Positions 1-47,789 of a stretch of DNA of 64,000 nucleotides are shown piece by piece; within the stretch, counting starts at the first letter, position 1, and each line of letters starts with the position of its first letter. Below the pieces are notes generated by a model. The model ran no database searches, was not told the origin of the DNA, and was given only the letters and a program-made list of their open reading frames with translations. This DNA comes from Octopus vulgaris (lineage: Eukaryota). Location of the stretch: NCBI GenBank assembly GCA_951406725.2, contig OX597827.1, forward strand, positions 39,246,001 through 39,310,000. Direction: 5' to 3'. The position numbers were made by a program, and so were the translations under genes.

Positions 1-1547
1 CTCTCTTGGACAATATTCTCAGAAGTAGGTATCGATTTAAATTTCTTCACATCAATACTTTTTGTACCAACATTTTGGTCTTTGGGTTTTCCATCATCAG
101 GTGTTTGGTCTTCAGTACTCAGAATATCAGCATCTTCAAGAGGATCTGACACAGTGTCTTTCGAAGATTCTAAGAAAGTCTTTGCAGGTTCTTCCACTTT
201 TGTTCTTACCTGAACTAAAGTGGGATCTTTCTCCTTCCAGTCATTATCCTCTTCAAGAGCTGAATATTCCAAGTCGTAATCTGATGGTTCAATTCTGACT
301 GATGTCACATCATCACCAACACTTTCTTGGACAATATTCTCAGAAGTAGATATTGATTTAAATTTCTTCACATCAATACTTTTTGTACCAACATTTTGGT
401 CTTTGGATTTTCCATCATCAGGAGTTTGGTCTTCAGTACTCAGAATATCAGCATCTTCAAGAGGATCTGACGCAGTGTCTTTCCAAGATTCTAAGAAAGT
501 CTTTTCAGGTTCTTCCACTTTTGTTCTTACCTGAACTAAAGTGGGATCTTTCTCCTTCCAGTCATTATCCTCTTCAAGAGCTGAATATTCCAAGACGTAA
601 TCTGATGGTTCAATTCTGAGTGATGTCACATCATCACCAACACTCTCTTGGACAATATTCTCAGAAGTAGGTATTGATTTCAATTTCTTCACATCAATAC
701 TTTTTGTACCAACATTTTGGTCTTTGGATTTTCCATCATCAGGAGTTTGGTCTTCAGTACTCAGAATATCAGCATCTTCAAGAGGATCTGACGCAGTGTC
801 TTTCCAAGATTCTATGAAAGTCTTTGCAGGTTCTTCCACTTTTGTTCTTACCTGAACTAAAGTGGGATCTTTCTCCTTCCAGTCATTATCCTCTTCAAGA
901 GCTGAATATTCCAAGTCGTAATCTGATGGTTCAATTATGACTGATGTCACATCATCACCAACACTCTCTTGGACAATATTCTCAGAAGTAGGTATTGATT
1001 TCAATTTCTTCACATCAATACTTTTTGTATCAACATTTTGGTCTTTGGATTTTCCATCATCAGGTGTTTGGTCTTCAGTACTCAGAATATCAGCATCTTC
1101 AAGAGGATCTGACACAGTGTCTTTCCAAGATTCCAAGAATGTCTCCACAGGTTCTTCATATTTATGTTTTACCTGAAATAATGTAGGGCCTTTTTCTTCC
1201 CAGTCATTATCCTCTTCAAGAGCTGAATATTCCAAGTTGTCTATTTGCACAGACATCACCTTAGAAACACCTACTTCCCTTATAACATTTTCAGAAGTGG
1301 GAGTACTAATGTCAGGAATGTTTGAATATATCACAGTATTTATGTTTTTTCCATCATTAGTGTTGTCATAGGTTGGTATTTCCACATCTCTTGTTAGAAT
1401 ATCAGCATCTTCAAGAGGATCTGATGCAGTGTCTTTCCAAGATTCCAAGAACGTCTGCACCGGCAATTGATGATATTCAACAACTTGTAGTTTGGACGGA
1501 TCTTTCTCTTCCCAGTCATTATCCTCTTCAAGAGCTGAATATTCAAG
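1..1547 (-). repeat. Coding tandem repeat, 321-bp (107-aa) unit: about 3.8 near-identical copies plus one diverged ~312-bp copy
   Basis: LEYSALEEDNDW begins at 272, 593, 914, 1235 (321 apart) and 1547. Unit: LEYSALEEDNDWKEKDPTLVQVRTKVEEPAKTFLESWKDTASDPLEDADILSTEDQTPDDGKSKDQNVGTKSIDVKKFKSIPTSENIVQESVGDDVTSVRIEPSDYD. Confidence 0.95.
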
Positions 1548-4094
1548 ATTCTTCTCATCTGTAGCTGCATCGTTTTTTCCATTTTCAGAAGAATCTAAAA
1601 GATTTTCATTCTTTAAAATTTCATGAGTATTTATTTCTCTATCTACAGAATGTACTGTTTCCCCAGAACTTTCAGGATCTTGGGACTCATCTCCATTCAT
1701 TAACAGCTGTGTCGTGATGTTGTTTATTTCACTGTGATGAATGCCAAGCAGTTCTTGTGTTCCTTGAGATGAGCAGTCGATAACTCCTGAAGTGATCTTA
1801 TCACTTTCAACTTTTGTAACCTGAGGATCTTGTCTTCTTTCAGATGTTTTTGTGTCTCCAACACCTTTGAAACTATCTTCTGATGAATAAAATTTTGACC
1901 ATATATAAAGATCTTTCCGATCTTCTTCAAGTGGTTCAGACACAGTGTATTTCCAATCAGTGCTATATTGATTTCTGTCGATCAATGATTTATAATCATC
2001 TGTGTTCTCATCTGTTTCATAAAATTTCCTCCAAATTTCATTGTCTCTGCTTATTTTCAAAGCCTTCTCTTCCCAATCCTTGTTGGATATTGGATTGTAA
2101 AACATTTTCCAAATGTCTTCATGCTCTATTTCATTTTCCAAAGGTTCAGATTCTGTAGAATCGTCTTTCAGTAAGTATGCCATGGTGTCATTATTGTCTT
2201 TACTTGGTTCTTTCAGAGTAAGACATGGCTTTTCATTCCAGTCATTATCCTCCTCAAGTGGAGAATAAAACTTTGTCCAAACCTCATTATATTCCGTATC
2301 TAAATTTGAAGTTACAGAATCTGAATGTGGTTGTACAGTTTGGTCAATGGGACTGGATCTTCCATCAAATCCAGTTGAAACACCCAAAGTAACTTCCTCT
2401 GAGTGTGATGGAAGCCTATTGCTTTCTGGTTCTGGTGATGCTTTTGTCTCTGGCTGGGTTAAACCAGCTTTGCTTGTCATAATGTCCTTGCTTATTGATG
2501 TCATTTTAGTTACAGGACATATGTCATATAATGTTTCGGTAACATATTGGTGTGGTTGTAGGGTTTGAGTTTCATCAAGATTAGAGGACACTTGGTAAGT
2601 TTTGTCCTCCAAATTAGTCCACTGAGGAATATTATCTGACTGATTTACTAAGATGGAACTAGTGGTGTCAGTCATTTTCATATCAGTTTTTTGTTCAACT
2701 GAATTATATTCAAAGTTGTTTAATTCACTCTCATCTTTAGATGTTTCTGTATGAGAGGAAACATTAGTGACCAAATCAGACCTGCTAAATTGGGCATCTA
2801 CAGTGTCTGAAGATTTGGTCTCTTCTGGCTTACCTGTAGATTGTAAAGAAGCTTCTTCAGCCTCTCCACTTGTGACAATTTCTTGGGTAGTTTTTTGTGT
2901 TCTGTCAGAGTCGAGTAGGCTAATGTTGGTATCAGCTTCAACAGGTATTAGCTTCTCAGAACTTTTCAGTTCTTCATATTTTTGTACGTTTGTGTCTCTT
3001 CTAGAAACAACATCTTTAGCTCCTAGCGAATTCAGTTTTTCACCTGTATATTCTAATTCATAATCTTCAGTTTCTTCTCCATCTAAACTTTGTATTTTTA
3101 GGGGTTGTTTTAAAATTGGGCTAACTGAAGATTCTTGAAAGGATAAAGGATCAGACTCTTTTGTGTTAGTGGCTTGTAATGTAGCTTGGTCCAAAAGAGA
3201 ACCATCCTTTATAACTAAACTAGACATTTCTTGACTAAACCTTATCTGGTCTCCTTGTAGGGAATCTAAGCCTGAAGATACGTCATCTCTTGAGACAGTT
3301 ATAGAACTTTCACAGATGTTAGTACTGTAATTGTCTTCAGAGACTTGAGTTACTCCTAAATCTAAAGCCCCACCACTGCCACTTTCAGGTTTTTCTACTC
3401 TAGTTACATCAGACTGGCTATGGGCAACATATTCTAAATCAGATTGATCTAAACTTTCATGGTCAAACTCATGTGAAGTTTCTGATATGGGGGTAGAAAT
3501 ACTAAGATCACCTGACATGAGGCCTGAATCAAACATCTCTGATGTGGAATAATCACTGCTAGGGGATATTTCTTCTCTACGATCTAAATACTTTAGCTTT
3601 GAGTTTTCATTCGCTGAAGGAGATTCTACAAGAGAATCGTTGTTAGTCACATGATCAACATTTAAGTCACTGGTAGCTTTGACCAGTCCTGCATCTACAT
3701 CACTGCAAATACCATTATAAAAAAAACCATTGCTTACTTCCTCAGCTTTGGAAGCAGTGTTGCCATCTGTGTCTTCACTGTACTCTGCCAAACCTGAAGT
3801 TTCGGAAGTTTTCTTTGTAAGTGCATTTGTTTCTTGAAGAGAGGTAATGTCTCCTGCCCCAGGCTGTTGAATCTCCACAGTTGGAGAATGTATATTGCTG
3901 AGGCGAGTTTGCATTTCACAAACGTCCTTTCCAGGGGCCGATTCTTCTTCATTGTATGCCCAAGCCCATGGAAAGTCATCAGCCCATCCTGTGTTAGCTG
4001 GCGGTAAAGAAATGGGAGTTTCTTCGGTTGGGGGAGATTTTAGGAATGGGTCTGTTAAAGATTCGGTGCTGCCAAAACCCTCACTATTTAGCAC
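1..4094 (-). CDS. Giant exon (at least 1364 codons, open to window edge) encoding an acidic S/T/E/D-rich tail; probable C-terminal region of the TDRKH-like gene
   Basis: Acceptor ccatttctttacag|GTG at 4095-4096. Frame reads VLNSEGFGSTESLTDPFLKSPPTEETPISLPPANTGWADDFPWAWAYNEEE...; no stop in the long stretches translated by hand, and the frame at 4094 matches the frame at position 3. Phase 0 fits the donor at 22112. Absent from the ORF track, consistent with no in-window stop. Linkage to upstream exons is inferred. Confidence 0.85.
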   Translation of the reverse strand, partial: MLNSEGFGSTESLTDPFLKSPPTEETPISLPPANTGWADDFPWAWAYNEEESAPGKDVCEMQTRLSNIHSPTVEIQQPGAGDITSLQETNALTKKTSETSGLAEYSEDTDGNTASKAEEVSNGFFYNGICSDVDAGLVKATSDLNVDHVTNNDSLVESPSANENSKLKYLDRREEISPSSDYSTSEMFDSGLMSGDLSISTPISETSHEFDHESLDQSDLEYVAHSQSDVTRVEKPESGSGGALDLGVTQVSEDNYSTNICESSITVSRDDVSSGLDSLQGDQIRFSQEMSSLVIKDGSLLDQATLQATNTKESDPLSFQESSVSPILKQPLKIQSLDGEETEDYELEYTGEKLNSLGAKDVVSRRDTNVQKYEELKSSEKLIPVEADTNISLLDSDRTQKTTQEIVTSGEAEEASLQSTGKPEETKSSDTVDAQFSRSDLVTNVSSHTETSKDESELNNFEYNSVEQKTDMKMTDTTSSILVNQSDNIPQWTNLEDKTYQVSSNLDETQTLQPHQYVTETLYDICPVTKMTSISKDIMTSKAGLTQPETKASPEPESNRLPSHSEEVTLGVSTGFDGRSSPIDQTVQPHSDSVTSNLDTEYNEVWTKFYSPLEEDNDWNEKPCLTLKEPSKDNNDTMAYLLKDDSTESEPLENEIEHEDIWKMFYNPISNKDWEEKALKISRDNEIWRKFYETDENTDDYKSLIDRNQYSTDWKYTVSEPLEEDRKDLYIWSKFYSSEDSFKGVGDTKTSERRQDPQVTKVESDKITSGVIDCSSQGTQELLGIHHSEINNITTQLLMNGDESQDPESSGETVHSVDREINTHEILKNENLLDSSENGKNDAATDEKNLEYSALEEDNDWEEKDPSKLQVVEYHQLPVQTFLESWKDTASDPLEDADILTRDVEIPTYDNTNDGKNINTVIYSNIPDISTPTSENVIREVGVSKVMSVQIDNLEYSALEEDNDWEEKGPTLFQVKHKYEEPVETFLESWKDTVSDPLEDADILSTEDQTPDDGKSKDQNVDTKSIDVKKLKSIPTSENIVQESVGDDVTSVIIEPSDYDLEYSALEEDNDWKEKDPTLVQVRTKVEEPAKTFIESWKDTASDPLEDADILSTEDQTPDDGKSKDQNVGTKSIDVKKLKSIPTSENIVQESVGDDVTSLRIEPSDYVLEYSALEEDNDWKEKDPTLVQVRTKVEEPEKTFLESWKDTASDPLEDADILSTEDQTPDDGKSKDQNVGTKSIDVKKFKSISTSENIVQESVGDDVTSVRIEPSDYDLEYSALEEDNDWKEKDPTLVQVRTKVEEPAKTFLESSKDTVSDPLEDADILSTEDQTPDDGKPKDQNVGTKSIDVKKFKSIPTSENIVQE

Positions 4095-5566
4095 CTGTAA
4101 AGAAATGGTACAAATATTAGAAAATAATAATTTCATACACAGACACAATTAAAAAAAAAAGAAAATTTGCAGGGAATAGGTAGGTTGGTAGGTAAAACAG
4201 TTTCAGAAAGAGAGCTAAGTTAATAGGGTGTTGGTTTACTGGATAACTGAAGGACTGGTGGCCTGTATCCTTATCACTGGTTTTAGGAAGTAATAAAACA
4301 GCATTTTCAATTGTTTAACCCCGGGTTTCCCTGAATGAGTAGACCTATGACCAAAAGCATTCCAACCATAACCATCCCACATATTTTTGTGTTTGTGGGA
4401 CTACACTGTTTAATGTGTCCTTTATAGTGTGTGAATTGAAGGGGATTTGGTTATTCACTCTTTCTAGCAGATTAAACAAGTAAAAAGAGAGGTTTAACTC
4501 ATTAGTTTAAGGGCTAAGCAGTCATATTCCATCTCTCGTGCTATATTTTATCAGTGGCCAATACACTTAGTTCCTATCAGTGGCTAAGATCTTAATGGTT
4601 TGTTCCATTAGCTTTTAATAAATAGGTACCATGGTTAGGTGCTGGGGTTATGCTTACAGCTTCAAAGTAGCAACGTTACAGCCTAAGTTGACTGGCATTT
4701 CAATGACTTCTAGTGTTGAGTTCAAATCCTACCACATGTACAGCTTAAAGAGATGTAACTGGAAGTTGTGGCATTCATACCTTCTGCAAGCTGGGACAAA
4801 TACTGCAAGGAGTTTTGTCCAGTACTCTAATGGTTCCATCAACCTATCACTGGATTAGTACCTTATTTTAAATTCCAAATCCAAAACGATGAAGAACAAA
4901 GGATTTGAACTCAGTACATAAACAGACTTAACTACTTTCGGGTAAGAGTATAAAAAAAAATTGCATCTCTCTGCCAAACCATGTTGAGTCAGTGTGGCAG
5001 GGTAGACTCATCAAATCAGTATGATCTCAAGCTCAAATTCACAGTCTCTACAATAGACTGTGATTGGGTGGAGAGAACATGTTGAGGCCTTTGTCTTGCA
5101 GTGGACAGAACATGGGCAATCCAATCCAGTCCAGTCCAGTCCAACCTACATAAACAGTCAGAATATTTGTCATTTTGACAGACACTTCAATGATCCTACC
5201 AATCCACTGCCATTAATAAAAATAATAACATAGAGGAAATGTTTAAAAAAAAAATGAAGGAAGAAGGTAAAAATCATTTTCTGATACACTCTTAGGAATT
5301 TCTTCTATAATAATGTCCTCAATGTACCCACTTAAGTACTCCGTTAAAGGTCAAATGGATAAGGACTAGTGGTAATCTACTTTCAGTTTCATTGTTGTGG
5401 AGTATTGAGCCTTGCATTTGAAATTATACAGGTTTAAAGATGCTGCTGTCGTTTTTAGCCTGACATCAACCCTGAACCAGCAGCCTAAACCTGAAAGCAT
5501 TTGAGCCTTGACCATCTGTATTTTTCCCTCAGAATTCATACATACATACATACATACATACATACA

Positions 5567-5597
<31 letters not shown>

Positions 5598-6555
5598 GAG
5601 TGTGTGTGTGTGTATGTGTGTTTGTGTTAGGTCACTCTTGAGTGCTACTGGTAACATGTAATCCACAACAGCCTGTAGGATGTCTGGGCCATCAGGAACT
5701 AAACTGGCAATATTACCACACTTGATTAGCAGGGTGGCTTTTTGGACACTGAGCAGGATAAAAATCAAGAGCTGTGAAAGGGGAGATGAACTGAGGAGGG
5801 TCAATGACCATCCAAGTACATAACACACACACACACACACTTAATCCAATGTATCCTTCCCATTTTAAGATAGTAGGGTGTGGTTTGAGGAAGCGCTATT
5901 TCTAGCAGGTTGAGTAATCACATAAAATAAATCCCTGTTGGTTTGTAGGTTTTAAGATCCTTTTACTTTTTAGCCCTTGATCAGTTCTAACCAAACAGAC
6001 CTATGGTCAAATGTGTTCCAGCCATGACAATCCTGACTTATTTACAGACTTAGTATATCTAGTGCAATAGAGTCCAATATGTCTTTTTTTTTAAGATGTA
6101 AGGCAGGGAGATTTGACTGCTGTTTTTAACCCACAGGTTTGTGAGAGAAGGGATTTCTCGTACCTCTTGGGATATTGTGCATCTTTCATCTTTCCCAACA
6201 GTATCCCTGCGACTCGATGACTTGCTCCATTCAGCATGGCCCATTTTCACTAGCTCTTCATTGATGTTAGTTGTCTAGAGGGTAAAAAAATATATATATA
6301 TATATATATATAAGTTAAATTAATATTACAAATAGAAGAATAGAAATACATATATATTATGTGGATACATACATGTAGACAAATATATATTCATAAAGTT
6401 AAAGATGTTGATTTTTATACAAGTAAATAAATCACACAAAATTGAAATTAATTCAAAACGAACAAAAATGTAACACACACACAAACACACCCATCCACAT
6501 ACATGTATACATATATGTATATATACATACAATGCATGCATACACATACACACAA

Positions 6556-14445: not shown

Positions 14446-14499
14446 CTTGGCTGCAGCCCGTTTTGTGTAGGCTCTCAGCCACAAATTACACCAGGTCAC
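14446..14499 (-). CDS. Candidate 54-nt frame-preserving micro-exon (VTWCNLWLRAYTKRAAAK)
   Basis: ccttccttcacag|GTG...AAG|gtagg; phase 0-0, open only in the required frame; lies between the last Tudor exon and the giant exon. Confidence 0.5.
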
Positions 14500-22111: not shown

Positions 22112-22266
22112 CTGGGGTCCATCATAGTCTATGAGCTGGAGACAAGGCACCAAGCCATGAGAGGTAGGTTGATATCTGACAATTTCTCCGGATATGATCT
22201 TCGATTGGTTCATACACACCATATTTTCAAATGCGTTACATGCACTTCGAGTCCAGTCATGGTCAT
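22112..22266 (-). CDS. TDRKH: TDRKH-like coding exon 9, SN-like part of the extended Tudor domain
   Basis: aactcaag|AT...CAG|gtaaa; DDHDWTRSACNAFENMVCMNQSKIISGEIVRYQPTSHGLVPCLQLIDYDGPQ; W-x3-A-x2-AF and P-x3-L-x-D patterns typical of extended Tudor domains; phase 1-0. Confidence 0.88.
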
Positions 22267-24013: not shown

Positions 24014-24078
24014 CTTTAGGTTTTATATTAGCAAGGTAACACTCAACGGCTTGGTATGGAAGACTCAGATATTCCTCT
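24014..24078 (-). CDS. TDRKH: TDRKH-like coding exon 8
   Basis: ttatttccag|A...G|gtagg; EEYLSLPYQAVECYLANIKPK, the conserved F/Y-L-x-L-P-x-Q-A-x-E-C-x-L-A motif after the Tudor core; phase 2-1. Confidence 0.93.
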
Positions 24079-25208: not shown

Positions 25209-25381
25209 CTTAAACGGCATACATTGTCTTTTGGCACTTCTTCATTGTAACCATAATCAACACAGAAGACTTTATAACTATTGTTTAGCACAGCGGTGAC
25301 ACGAGCCCGGTACCATTGTGACTGGTTAGAGAGGCATACAGCCACAACATCGTCAACAGCAACTTCATGACATTGGTACGT
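25209..25381 (-). CDS. TDRKH: TDRKH-like coding exon 7, Tudor core
   Basis: tttaacag|ACG...AG|gtaag; TYQCHEVAVDDVVAVCLSNQSQWYRARVTAVLNNSYKVFCVDYGYNEEVPKDNVCRLR with WYRARV and VDYG hallmarks; phase 0-2. Confidence 0.95.
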
Positions 25382-25959: not shown

Positions 25960-26165
25960 TTGAAAATGCCTTGAATCTGAGTAAAATTCATCAATATTTT
26001 TCTGTAGGTTCACTAATTTTGGTAAATTTTCATTACGAATGTGGGCCCAGAAATGACCAGGGCTTGTCACAGACACAACCATCAGTTCCAGAAGATCTGT
26101 TGGAGCATCTTTGGTTAAATGGGACTGCGGAACTGTATGTTCTCCTGAATCTCTAGCAGCTGCAT
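25960..26165 (-). CDS. TDRKH: TDRKH-like coding exon 6, start of the extended Tudor domain
   Basis: tcttcaag|AT...CAA|gtaagt; ...APTDLLELMVVSVTSPGHFWAHIRNENLPKLVNLQKNIDEFYSDSRHFQ (SPxHFW motif); phase 1-0. Confidence 0.92.
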
Positions 26166-28663: not shown

Positions 28664-28778
28664 TTTTTGTGTGAGCCACTCTATGCATGTGGTGCGCTGC
28701 AGTGTCACTGCTACTACACTGTGACAAAGGTTCTTCATGGAATGTGAGGTTCTTGTCGACTACGTCGTTAATTAGTTT
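28664..28778 (-). CDS. TDRKH: TDRKH-like coding exon 5, end of KH2 helix and linker
   Basis: ttcctttcatttcag|AAA...A|gtaagt; KLINDVVDKNLTFHEEPLSQCSSSDTAAHHMHRVAHTK; phase 0-1, exactly what is needed to join exon 4 to exon 6. Confidence 0.88.
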
Positions 28779-30267: not shown

Positions 30268-30407
30268 CTTGGCATGTTCTATTTGTTCTCTTGAACCTTC
30301 TATAGAGACAAACTGCATATGTTTTGCATCTCTATTTTCTGTTGTGTCTATGAGAACTGTAGCACCACTCACTCGGTTAATATATCGTACAGTTTGATAA
30401 TTGTTAC
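30268..30407 (-). CDS. TDRKH: TDRKH-like coding exon 4, KH2
   Basis: tattccag|GT...AAG|gtaagt; GNNYQTVRYINRVSGATVLIDTTENRDAKHMQFVSIEGSREQIEHAK; phase 1-0. Confidence 0.92.
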
Positions 30408-30948: not shown

Positions 30949-31150
30949 CAATAAGTGAAATAGTTGATGAACTTGGAATATACATGTCTTCTGAAGTGAC
31001 TGTTGAAATATCAGAAATGATTTGCTGGATTCTGAGTTCAGCCTGCTGGGTTGCTTCTAAGCTTCCTCGTATACATAGTGTTTGATCTTCTGTTGAGGAT
31101 GTGTCACCATCTTGTTTGAGATCTATTTGGACATTACAGCTATTTTGTAA
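30949..31150 (-). CDS. TDRKH: TDRKH-like coding exon 3, rest of KH1 and start of KH2
   Basis: tttgtttcag|TTA...G|gtaagt; LQNSCNVQIDLKQDGDTSSTEDQTLCIRGSLEATQQAELRIQQIISDISTVTSEDMYIPSSSTISLI; phase 0-1. Confidence 0.92.
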
Positions 31151-32955: not shown

Positions 32956-33077
32956 TCGCTGTAAACTTGATCTGTTTGTGCCAATGATGGCTGATGTGGC
33001 ATAAGAAGGAATTTGGACTTCTGTGACTGTCATGGAAGATTTTGATTTTGAGCTTTTAGAGTCTTCTTCTTCGTTAT
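32956..33077 (-). CDS. TDRKH: TDRKH-like coding exon 2, start of KH1
   Basis: gctttttcag|AT...CGA|gtaag; DNEEEDSKSSKSKSSMTVTEVQIPSYATSAIIGTNRSSLQR; phase 1-0. Confidence 0.92.
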
Positions 33078-37429: not shown

Positions 37430-40111
37430 AAATAGACCATAACTTAGGAAAGTACCACATTTAATAGCATATAAGATGTACTTTTTACAAAAAATAGTCT
37501 AAAAAAAATCATTCTGGGTCCTCTGAAGTTTGGCCTATATTATATGTTTTAATGTTCCAAAAAACCATTTTTCTGAATATGCATTGTTGAAATTGGGTTG
37601 TGTCTAATATACCTGTATGTCTTTTATGCTGTCAAATATAGTATTCAATAAATTATAGTAGCAGAGTGTTTATATGTACATGATGCCTTTGTTGATGCAA
37701 TTACAGCTCTATATTTGTTGTCTTTCTCCAACTGGGAAGGACGTTTACAGTTGTTTCAAATGAAATTTATTCACATGTGTCACTCAGTACATCATTCTCA
37801 ACTAAATATATGCATACACAGAAGGAATATAAAAAGCAAAGATGGTTCCAGTAAGATTTGAATTCAGAAAGTAAAGCAACATAGCTAAATATCAAAATGC
37901 ATTTTGTTTGCCTCTCTAGCAAGCTTGCAAATTCGTTAATCACCTGATAATTATAATAGTAAGAATTCCTAACATAAACATAAAGTCACAAATAAAAGGA
38001 GAAGAGCTCACGTAATTAAATGAACCATAGTAATTAACTGGTACTTACATGTTGACCTTGGAAATATGAAAGGCAAAGTTTGCCTTGGTGGTATTTAGAC
38101 TTAGAAAGTAGATGAATGGGCATTTTTTAATTCAGTGCTCTATAAATTATTCCATCCTTCTGATTATGGTGATGATGATGATGATGATGATGGTAAAAAT
38201 AATGATAATAAAACCTTCTTACTAAAGGCACAATGCCTGAAATTTGAGGTGAGGGCACTAGTTGATTACACTGACCTCAGTGTTTCACTGGTATTTAATT
38301 TAATTTAATTAATTTAATTTATTGAAAGGATGAACGGTAAAGTCAACCTTGCTGGGATTTGAACTCAGAATGTAACGACAGATGATATGTTGCTAAGCAT
38401 TTTGCCCAGCATGCTAACAGTTCTGCCAGTTCATCGCCTTAATAATAATGATAATAATATGAAAATTACAACTGTTGTTTCTAATTTAGGCACAAGGACA
38501 GCAGTTTTGAGGAGAAGGGGTTAGTTGTTACCATCAACCCCAGTACTTGACTGGTACTTTATTTTATCAAACCCCACAGGGATGAAAGGCAAACTAAACT
38601 TAGAGAGCAGGAAGAAATATTGGTTTCAAATAAGGCAGTTTTAGGGGAGGGGTAAGTCAATTACATCAACCCCAGTGCACAACTGGTATTTATTTTATTG
38701 ATCCCAAAAGGATAAAAGGCAAAATCAAGATCAATAGAATTTGAACTGAGAACATAAAGATGGACAAAATACCAGTAAGCATTTTGGCCATTTGCTAATG
38801 ATACTGCCACCTTGCTACTTTAAAGTAGAAATATTCTTTTCTGCTCTAGGCACAAGACCCAAAATTTTGGGAAGGGGTGGGGGCAATCGATTAGATCGAC
38901 CCCAGTGTGCAACTGGTACTCAATTTATTAACCCCAAAAGAATGAAAGGCAAAGTTGACCTCAGTGATTCTGCCAGTTCACCAATAATGATAATAAAAGA
39001 TTCCTTACATGAAGTGGAAACAAGTAGCAATCAGTCAATTTAGCCAACTGTTTCTCTACCTGATCCCACTCCATTTATCTGAAGTTTTTGCATCGTATCT
39101 TAATTAGAAATCATCATCATCATCATCAACATCCTCATCATCATCATCAACATAACCAGTAACATCATCACTACATGAAAGTGTTTCATTAACTTTTAAC
39201 ATGAGAAAACAACAGAATTTTGTCCAAGACTGCAGAAGGAAGAGACATTTTGTTTAGGAAAATACAGTCACATCATAGTAACAGTTGCATGCCATGCTGA
39301 ACAAATTTGGAAGTATTGTTAATTTCTTTTTTTAGTACAACATCAGCAATAACAACAGAAACAACAACAACAACTACTCATGGGCAGCATCAGCAGCAAG
39401 ATCATTAAACAGATTTAAACCAATGATTAATTAATTAATCAAACCAAAAACTAACCTGCAATCAATTTCTGACCAATGTTTAGTCTGTGGCTCAGAAATC
39501 TTGCTGACCTTTTCCCTCGACGGAGCAAATGTCGTCCCACTGGAACAAAGAATTGGCTGCAGGCAATGGACTACTATGTTTGCAAAGAAATTGGCGGAAC
39601 AAACCGCTGAGTAAAGAAATCAAACAAACAAGCCAACAAACCAACCAGCCAACTGACCAAGCAACGAATTAACCAATCAAAATATAGCAAAACAATTTTG
39701 TTTAATTTTAGAAAATAATTTTTGCTTTTGTTTTAATATAAGATGATGGTTAACCGTTTCATGTCTAGAATAACTGGACACTATAACACTATAATTAATT
39801 GTTACACTGTAGTTAATTAGCAAGTCTTTTAGGATCTTAAAGATTGATTGGACTTTTAATCTCATCTTTTAAGTATTTCAAACAGGTGTCATTTTCCCTA
39901 GTGGCTGCAGTTTTTACTAGGGAGATAATTATTTCTTCATAATATTTGGTGGGATTAGAAATCTGAATTTGAAATTAAGGAATTATTAATCTAAAAGATG
40001 CAAAATCTTCTAGTTGGTGATAATTTTGTATAATATTATTTCATCCTTTTTACACTAAATCAATGATTATCAGTAGTGTAAATGGTCACTTGTGGTAGTA
40101 AATTGACTGAG

Positions 40112-47695: not shown

Positions 47696-47789
47696 CATCT
47701 GTGTGCCGGAGTAACAAATAAAGCAAGACAAATGTGGTTGGAAGGGCAACAAAAAGAGCGAGTTTTCCTGTGATTGTTATGTCAAACAT
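47696..47789 (-). CDS. TDRKH: TDRKH-like first coding exon, N-terminal hydrophobic anchor (whole exon 47696-47937 with 5' UTR)
   Basis: ATG in acaaccATG context with an in-frame TAA 9 nt upstream; MFDITITGKLALFVALPTTFVLLYLLLRHTD; donor G|gtaagt phase 1; acceptor ttttcag at 47938-47939. TDRKH/Papi proteins have an N-terminal mitochondrial TM anchor. Confidence 0.87.

Follow-up and report, generated by a model that had tools for sequence, protein, structure and literature searches.

Recurrent [IV]-W-x-[KM]-F-Y motifs in the giant repeat tail of a predicted TDRKH/Papi-type protein of Octopus vulgaris

The 64,000-nucleotide (nt) stretch of Octopus vulgaris DNA analysed here (contig OX597827.1, positions 39,246,001 to 39,310,000; the window) carries on its minus strand a predicted gene of the TDRKH/Papi type, in which one giant exon encodes a long acidic tail with four copies of the motif [IV]-W-x-[KM]-F-Y. 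The recurrence of these four motifs is real and lies far beyond chance. The motifs are old copies at the edge of a tandem repeat array, and the reading preferred here, which is given an even chance of being right, is that they and their relatives further along the tail form a multivalent docking array at the mitochondrial surface.

Recurrence of the motifs

The four motifs share one stop-free frame of the minus strand, which spans from position 4148 to the window edge. They are listed with their scores against the phospho-FFAT and conventional FFAT matrices discussed below.

2253..2282, minus strand: motif 1, EVWTKFYSPLEE (V-W-T-K-F-Y-S-P-L-E; [IV] codon starts at 2282); phospho-FFAT 3.0, conventional 5.5
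2085..2114, minus strand: motif 2, DIWKMFYNPISN (I-W-K-M-F-Y-N-P-I-S; [IV] codon starts at 2114); phospho-FFAT 7.5, conventional 6.0
2007..2036, minus strand: motif 3, EIWRKFYETDEN (I-W-R-K-F-Y-E-T-D-E; [IV] codon starts at 2036); phospho-FFAT 8.0, conventional 4.0; sole fit to WXX[FW]X[DE]
1875..1904, minus strand: motif 4, YIWSKFYSSEDS (I-W-S-K-F-Y-S-S-E-D; [IV] codon starts at 1904); phospho-FFAT 3.5, conventional 5.0

Chance was gauged with 20,000 shuffles of the 1,364-amino-acid giant exon. The pattern [IV]W.[KM]FY turned up once in two of them and two or more times in none. The looser W..FY, whose figure is the fairer because the exact pattern was chosen after the motifs had been seen, turned up once in 210 of the 20,000 and never two or more times. 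An earlier note on this DNA had claimed four recurring motifs at 1875..2290, and this is borne out: all are present in frame and recur beyond the shuffles.

Five further copies, for a total of nine, are found in P0029, a predicted protein of 6,301 amino acids that is 97% identical to the window exon and starts at the Tudor domain. In four of its 22 repeat units a separate V-W-S-M-F-Y-T-P-M copy stands 18 residues upstream, and the ninth copy, V-W-N-M-Y-F, follows the repeat array. The consensus of the related copies is [VI]-W-x-[KM]-F-Y-[S/T/E/N]-[P/S/T]. Across the six copy types compared, the [VI], W, [KM], F/Y and Y/F columns are fixed and the neighbours vary freely; in FFAT numbering, with K or M at position 1, position 5 is P, S or T (never D, E, K or R), position 6 is L, I, D, E, M or H, and positions -1 and 8 are likewise variable. 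The flanks of the window copies have 12-21 of 42 nt in common, and differing synonymous codons encode the fixed residues (K AAG/AAA, Y TAT/TAC, I ATT/ATA).

The host gene

An exhaustive protein search, in which the best 150 of 802 matches were nearly all multi-Tudor proteins, gave P0029 and P0088 as the only single-Tudor relatives among the matches listed; a squid or cuttlefish TDRKH may rank below those best 150 of 802. P0088 is the Argonauta hians protein GAB1604296.1, the model of which ends about 120 residues into the giant exon, before the motifs. The pattern [IV]W.[KM]F[YF] occurs in none of the other proteins retrieved. The five best solved-structure matches of the octopus Tudor exon are all TDRKH, and for the Argonauta orthologue the six best come from human TDRKH and insect Papi Tudors (E 5e-22 to 3e-18). 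The closeness of the Tudor domain among solved structures supports assignment of the gene to the TDRKH/Papi type, as orthologue or paralogue.

The predicted product comprises an N-terminal transmembrane segment (TM), two KH domains, an extended Tudor domain and an acidic tail. The upstream exon model is stop-free with GT-AG junctions throughout and has 11 exons, or 13 with two that are supported by database models.

47696..47789, minus strand: first coding exon, bearing the single TM anchor (residues 9-27); Argonauta agrees at 30 of 31 residues
39456..39539, minus strand: basic 84-nt exon directly after the TM, in the Argonauta model
32956..33077, minus strand: start of KH1, loop G-T-N-R (exon model)
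30949..31150, minus strand: KH1 body and start of KH2 (exon model)
30268..30407, minus strand: KH2, loop G-N-N-Y (exon model)
28664..28778, minus strand: end of KH2 and linker (exon model)
25960..26165, minus strand: start of extended Tudor (exon model)
25209..25381, minus strand: Tudor core exon; best solved-structure matches TDRKH, one cage aromatic replaced by Cys
24014..24078, minus strand: Tudor exon (exon model)
22112..22266, minus strand: Tudor-SN exon (exon model)
14446..14499, minus strand: 54-nt in-frame exon within the Tudor-SN part, in both P0029 and the Argonauta model
6164..6274, minus strand: final Tudor-SN exon, joined by splicing to the giant exon
1..4094, minus strand: giant coding exon of at least 1,364 amino acids, acceptor at 4094; acidic, predicted disordered

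Two of these exons may be alternative: the frame stays open without the basic exon at 39456-39539, and the 54-nt exon at 14446-14499 lies outside the aligned range of TDRKH structures. A basic stretch right after the TM is typical of mitochondrial signal-anchor proteins. The single hydrophobic segment (residues 9-27) stands at the N-terminus, about 1,100 residues away from the motifs, and its presence in a TDRKH-type gene supports by homology the outer-mitochondrial anchor proposed earlier; the mitochondrial location of mouse TDRKH requires its TM, according to the relevant part of PMC6411938.

Transcript evidence bears on the junction with the giant exon. The stretch is present in 20 of the 24 sequencing runs listed, and four of these were aligned in detail, three of RNA type (that of X4 and X12 being assumed) and one of DNA. 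Each RNA-type run gave one contig that ends at 4096, with zero depth in 4102-4313, a stretch into which the DNA run carries on. At 6166 the upstream exon is matched by the loose end of the X20 contig over 26 of 30 nt. Because the RNA contigs end at the acceptor and this loose end is the upstream exon, the modelled splicing of the giant exon is borne out. In the contigs of X12 and X20, 1,704 and 1,575 nt stay unaligned, room enough for all of the upstream coding sequence (1,383-1,521 nt), which is a hint by length alone. Run X20 is about 8% diverged, with 198 other letters counted overall across 1754-4096, a range that spans the motifs.

The tail encoded by the giant exon is 22% D/E and 21% S/T and falls on the disordered side of the charge-hydropathy boundary, with a net charge of -0.11 to -0.13 per residue. 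A Pfam search of this exon gave nothing above the cut-off. A single-sequence AlphaFold model of the motif region is uninformative (mean predicted local distance difference test score, pLDDT, 32.5), and its helices over motifs 1 and 2 are not evidence. A solved-structure search with the motif region returned a single match (E 0.069), taken as chance. Over its first 120 amino acids the giant exon is 84% identical between window and Argonauta. An aromatic cluster in this part, G-W-A-D-D-F-P-W-A-W-A-Y-N-E-E-E-S (3939-3989, minus strand), is invariant between the two and appears to be a better-conserved candidate binding site than the four motifs.

The conserved core of the protein is altered in its binding sites. 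The KH loops, presumed to lie where the KH consensus would place them in both the octopus and the Argonauta models, are without the second Gly of GxxG (G-T-N-R and G-N-N-Y in octopus, G-T-N-R and G-K-N-S in Argonauta). GxxG is the hallmark KH loop for nucleic-acid binding in the relevant passage of PMC3413153. The aromatic cage of the Tudor domain is incomplete, reading F-C-V-D-Y-G-Y-N against Y-F-V-D-Y-G-D-S in fly Papi and Y-F-V-D-F-G-D-N in TDRKH: the equivalents of BmPAPI Tyr338 and Asp343 are Cys and Tyr, with cage residues from the pertinent part of bioRxiv 10.1101/786731 mapped by spacing. Both KH loops and part of the Tudor cage are degenerate, in Argonauta too, and the protein may have left the pathway of PIWI-interacting RNA (piRNA) or be a diverged paralogue.

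Origin from a 107-residue repeat

The neighbourhood of the motifs is revealing of their ancestry.

1..1550, minus strand: 107-amino-acid (321-nt) tandem repeat, continuing past the window, 22 units in P0029
2130..2267, minus strand: old diverged repeat-unit copy after motif 1 (Y-S-P-L-E-E-D-N-D-W ... S-E-P-L-E), ungapped against the 107-amino-acid repeat

The tandem repeat comprises 3.9 copies at 95% in 1-1237 and a more diverged copy that extends to about 1550. Motif 1 and the next 46 codons are an ungapped homologue of this neighbouring repeat, with 65-72 of 138 nt identical (control 40.6 +/- 5.4, maximum 57), and a repeat-unit profile matches the stretch after motif 1 at E 4.4e-8. Weaker matches of the profile cover the stretch that follows motif 2 and the one that precedes motif 4, and both of these motifs sit 13 residues after S-E-P-L-E. 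Because of the repeat-unit homology and the common S-E-P-L-E spacing, the four motifs share ancestry and are not independent; they are old copies at the edge of the repeat array.

In P0029 the array of 22 units occupies residues 1088-3430. Each unit has L-[EQ]-Y-S-A-L-E-E, a core like that of the LC3-interacting region (LIR), and nearly all have D-N-D-W-x-E-K and F-[LI]-E-S-W. Short high-depth contigs cover the repeat in all four runs examined, the diverged X20 included, which suggests that the array is shared. X20 has 161 different letters in place of the 203 nt at 1550-1754, losing a net 42 nt in frame; between motif 4 and the repeat the spacer is far more variable in that run than the motif region, which aligns through.

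FFAT scoring

The phospho-FFAT matrix was coded from Table EV4 of PMC7705450, and a look-up with the calculator reproduces STARD3 at 2.5; membership was taken as a score below 3. The conventional matrix was Table S2 of PMC3261905 with a cut-off of 2, the flank cell '>=-2' being taken as >=2; later conventional matrices (2016, 2019) could shift these scores by a fraction. Position-weight scoring, which the earlier note had proposed as a check, went against it in the window, the four motifs ranging from 3.0 to 8.0 on the phospho-FFAT matrix, with none below 3, and from 4.0 to 6.0 on the conventional one. The four near-identical downstream P0029 copies (MFYTPMT) score 2.5, equal to STARD3, and the ninth copy 8; on the conventional matrix the downstream types score 4.5 and 5.5 and likewise miss the cut-off. 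Sites scoring 3 or less are as common in the window exon as in shuffles (1 against a mean of 1.1), and number 9 against 4.5 in the P0029 tail (P 0.03), where four of the nine are near-identical.

The motif itself shows a pattern beneath these scores. F or Y stands at FFAT positions 2 and 3 in all four window copies and all nine in P0029; S or T stands at position 4 in two of four (S, N, E, S) and in 7/9, and S/T-P is found in 5/9. With the F-Y core taken as given, positions 4, 5 and 7 resemble FFAT more closely than expected from composition. When F-Y was planted in real tail windows, the mean best score of the six types was 4.08 against a null of 6.15 (P 0.004), and the four window copies gave P 0.017, values that are overstated as the copies are related and not independent draws. 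The setting is that of an unstructured cytosolic region, as judged from charge-hydropathy disorder and the single N-terminal TM, with topology inferred from mouse TDRKH. FFAT has no counterpart to the invariant [VI]-W and [KM]. Thus the motif leans to FFAT at positions 4-7, fails on score and has conserved features foreign to FFAT; the FFAT reading of the earlier note survives in the character of positions 4, 5 and 7 and in the downstream copies at 2.5, and falters where no window copy passes and an inhibitory K occupies position 1. Part of PMC3261905 describes a weak FFAT-like motif that did not work as a monomer but did target the endoplasmic reticulum (ER) as a dimer.

Better FFAT-type scores occur beyond the window at P0029 residues 4710, 3643 and 3687 (phospho-FFAT 1.5, E-F-T-S-A-S-S, and 2.5, E-F-F-S-G-S-L; conventional 2.5, E-Y-L-D-A-K-D). 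The human TDRKH site VYVSASE (phospho-FFAT 2.5) was rejected as a precedent because it lies in a Tudor strand and is not conserved in the octopus gene.

Interpretation

If the related copies form a multivalent docking array, the acidic tail would be disordered and cytosolic, and the TM, as in mouse TDRKH, would fix it in the outer mitochondrial membrane. Each copy would offer two hydrophobic anchors (W and F-Y), weak alone and binding by avidity, and phosphorylation of the following S/T would tune binding. The protein would have drifted from piRNA trimming towards a scaffold or spacer, a role likelier than that of a piRNA-trimming platform because the KH loops and Tudor cage are degenerate. 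The best-named partner, put forward tentatively, is a VAP-family MSP domain on the ER, with most in its favour at motif 1 and at the four MFYTPMT copies; the invariance of [VI]-W points either to a further pocket or to some other partner. The ER-mitochondria tether proposed earlier is plausible. Its full form is distinctly unlikely: an RNA-blind TDRKH tether of octopods, whose tail of about 6,000 residues would grip ER VAP by avidity through W-extended, phospho-switched FFAT-like sites and hold mitochondria and ER at a long, adjustable distance.

Several observations weigh against a docking array. Everything beyond the window, including the five downstream copies, rests on the predicted model P0029. 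When homologues of the motif region were sought, first at near and then at longer lengths, 0 of 2,089 and 0 of 88 candidates emerged, and the same search with the Tudor exon 0 of 4, blanks that are weak because the search missed P0088, a true relative fitting its terms. An ESM Atlas search with the motif region gave no usable match, and the three loci of a metagenome scan (41% over 27 amino acids) were taken as chance. None of the 22 P0029 repeat units has W-x-x-F-Y in the motif-1 or motif-2/4 register; the amplified units lost the motif, which is therefore dispensable there. No window copy passes either published FFAT cut-off cleanly, K at position 1 (three of four window copies) is termed 'quite inhibitory' in the pertinent passage of PMC3261905, and about 10% of human proteins (2,079 of 20,373) score under 3 according to part of PMC7705450.

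The loss of the motif from the amplified units favours the notion that the copies are neutral relics, left behind by former internal duplications within a rapidly evolving spacer that serves, if at all, as sheer acidic length. The copies do descend from one repeat, and conservation outside octopods was not found in the motif-region searches with their weak blanks. Such an origin without function is nevertheless unlikely, since five columns persist in six copy types with near-saturated flanks. Fixed columns and synonymous core changes amid diverged flanks favour selection on the motif amino acids, a contrast that is partly circular as the core was picked by identity. The earlier statement that the motif outlasts its context has to be amended: the diverged flanks share repeat ancestry, and the amplified 107-amino-acid units kept the context and lost the motif. 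The strict case of the docking reading, in which the copies are phospho-FFAT sites and the protein an ER-mitochondria tether via VAP or MOSPD2, is possible though doubtful. Motif 1 trails STARD3 by just 0.5, on account of its K at position 1, and the four downstream copies that match STARD3 share S/T4-P5. Position 6, free in FFAT, is fully variable, position 5 avoids charge, the planted nulls give P 0.004-0.017 (inflated by kinship), and P0029 holds further sites at 1.5 and 2.5. However, neither matrix accommodates motif 2 or motif 3, the conserved [VI]-W and [KM] are left over, the window exon has no excess of sites at 3 or less, about 1,100 residues separate anchor and motifs, and no lipid-transfer domain is seen.

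The remaining partners fit less well. Atg8/LC3 binding on a protein like a mitophagy receptor would suit the anchor and net-negative disordered tail, which resemble organellophagy receptors as described in part of PMC12431859, and the repeat presents the canonical [WFY]xx[VIL] core as Y-S-A-L in 22 places, 20 of which have an acid just upstream. This bears more on the YSAL repeat than on the motifs, where W-x-x-F is a non-canonical core by the relevant part of PMC11064669 and only 2/9 copies (YSPL, YNPI) have the canonical one, both with an internal Pro; the reading is improbable. A further mark against it is that basic residues within the LIR core are disfavoured. It is very improbable that the motifs fold back onto the KH/Tudor core of their own protein, like an enlarged version of the phospho-regulated Bombyx Papi tail. 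There the C-terminal disordered domain controls KH RNA binding via Ser547 phosphorylation, but even Bombyx and mouse show poor conservation of that tail (both from the pertinent part of PMC8938449), nine copies would face one core, and in the octopus protein the KH loops seem incapable of RNA binding. Binding to the AP-2 alpha-ear or a related coat adaptor is scarcely probable at all: W-x-x-F occurs in 8/9 copies, 7 with an acid within 3 residues upstream, and phospho-S/T could supply the +5 acid, yet 1/9 copies fits WXX[FW]X[DE] as given in part of PMC5694535, and a mitochondrial anchor gives no obvious reason for coat binding. The adaptor-ear and LIR alternatives of the earlier note thus fit worse than FFAT, in 1/9 and 2/9 copies. 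FxxP (PP4-type) and YxxPhi patterns each fit 6/9 copies, leave the invariant W unexplained and were set aside.

Degenerate RNA and methyl-arginine sites together with a spliced giant repeat tail would make a clear case of germline scaffold repurposing in a cephalopod lineage, with the motif array as a direct handle on the protein's new partner. If that partner is VAP, the FFAT rules would widen to take in an upstream [VI]-W, a tolerated K1 and avidity, and long ER-mitochondria tethers would gain a new type.

Comparison with known systems

A literature search, in which most subscription journals were outside reach, gave no TDRKH with an FFAT motif; its match for TDRKH and octopus concerned NAA60, and among the best matches listed for cephalopod piRNA, Tudor or Papi there was no cephalopod account. 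TDRKH/Papi is a compact, conserved mitochondrial platform for piRNA trimming. The octopus gene shares with TDRKH/TDRD2/Papi the order TM-KH-KH-extended Tudor-acidic disordered tail. It differs in that its tail is built of 107-amino-acid repeats and W-x-x-F-Y motifs and in its altered KH loops and cage. The length of that tail is at least 1,364 amino acids (about 6,000 in P0029), in contrast to 63 in mouse and 164 in Bombyx, as given in the relevant part of PMC8938449.

Like the organellophagy receptors, the octopus protein combines an anchor with a net-negative disordered tail, and its repeat is rich in Y-x-x-L cores; unlike them, it has motifs that are not canonical LIRs, a far longer tail, and folded KH and Tudor domains. 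With AP-2 alpha-appendage ligands it has in common a W-x-x-F core after acids, in several copies in a disordered tail, whereas the +5 acid is present in 1/9 octopus copies and the location is predicted to be mitochondrial. The STARD3 phospho-FFAT (QFYSPPE) is matched in motif 1 and the four downstream copies at F2-Y3-S/T4-P5 and in the acidic flank, and both proteins are membrane-anchored with an unstructured cytosolic region, predicted in octopus. The predicted octopus protein departs from STARD3 in K or M at position 1, the upstream invariant [VI]-W, its many copies, two of four window copies without S/T4, and the lack of any lipid-transfer domain seen. On these comparisons, the octopod TDRKH with its giant repeat tail would be a variant of the known TDRKH/Papi family.

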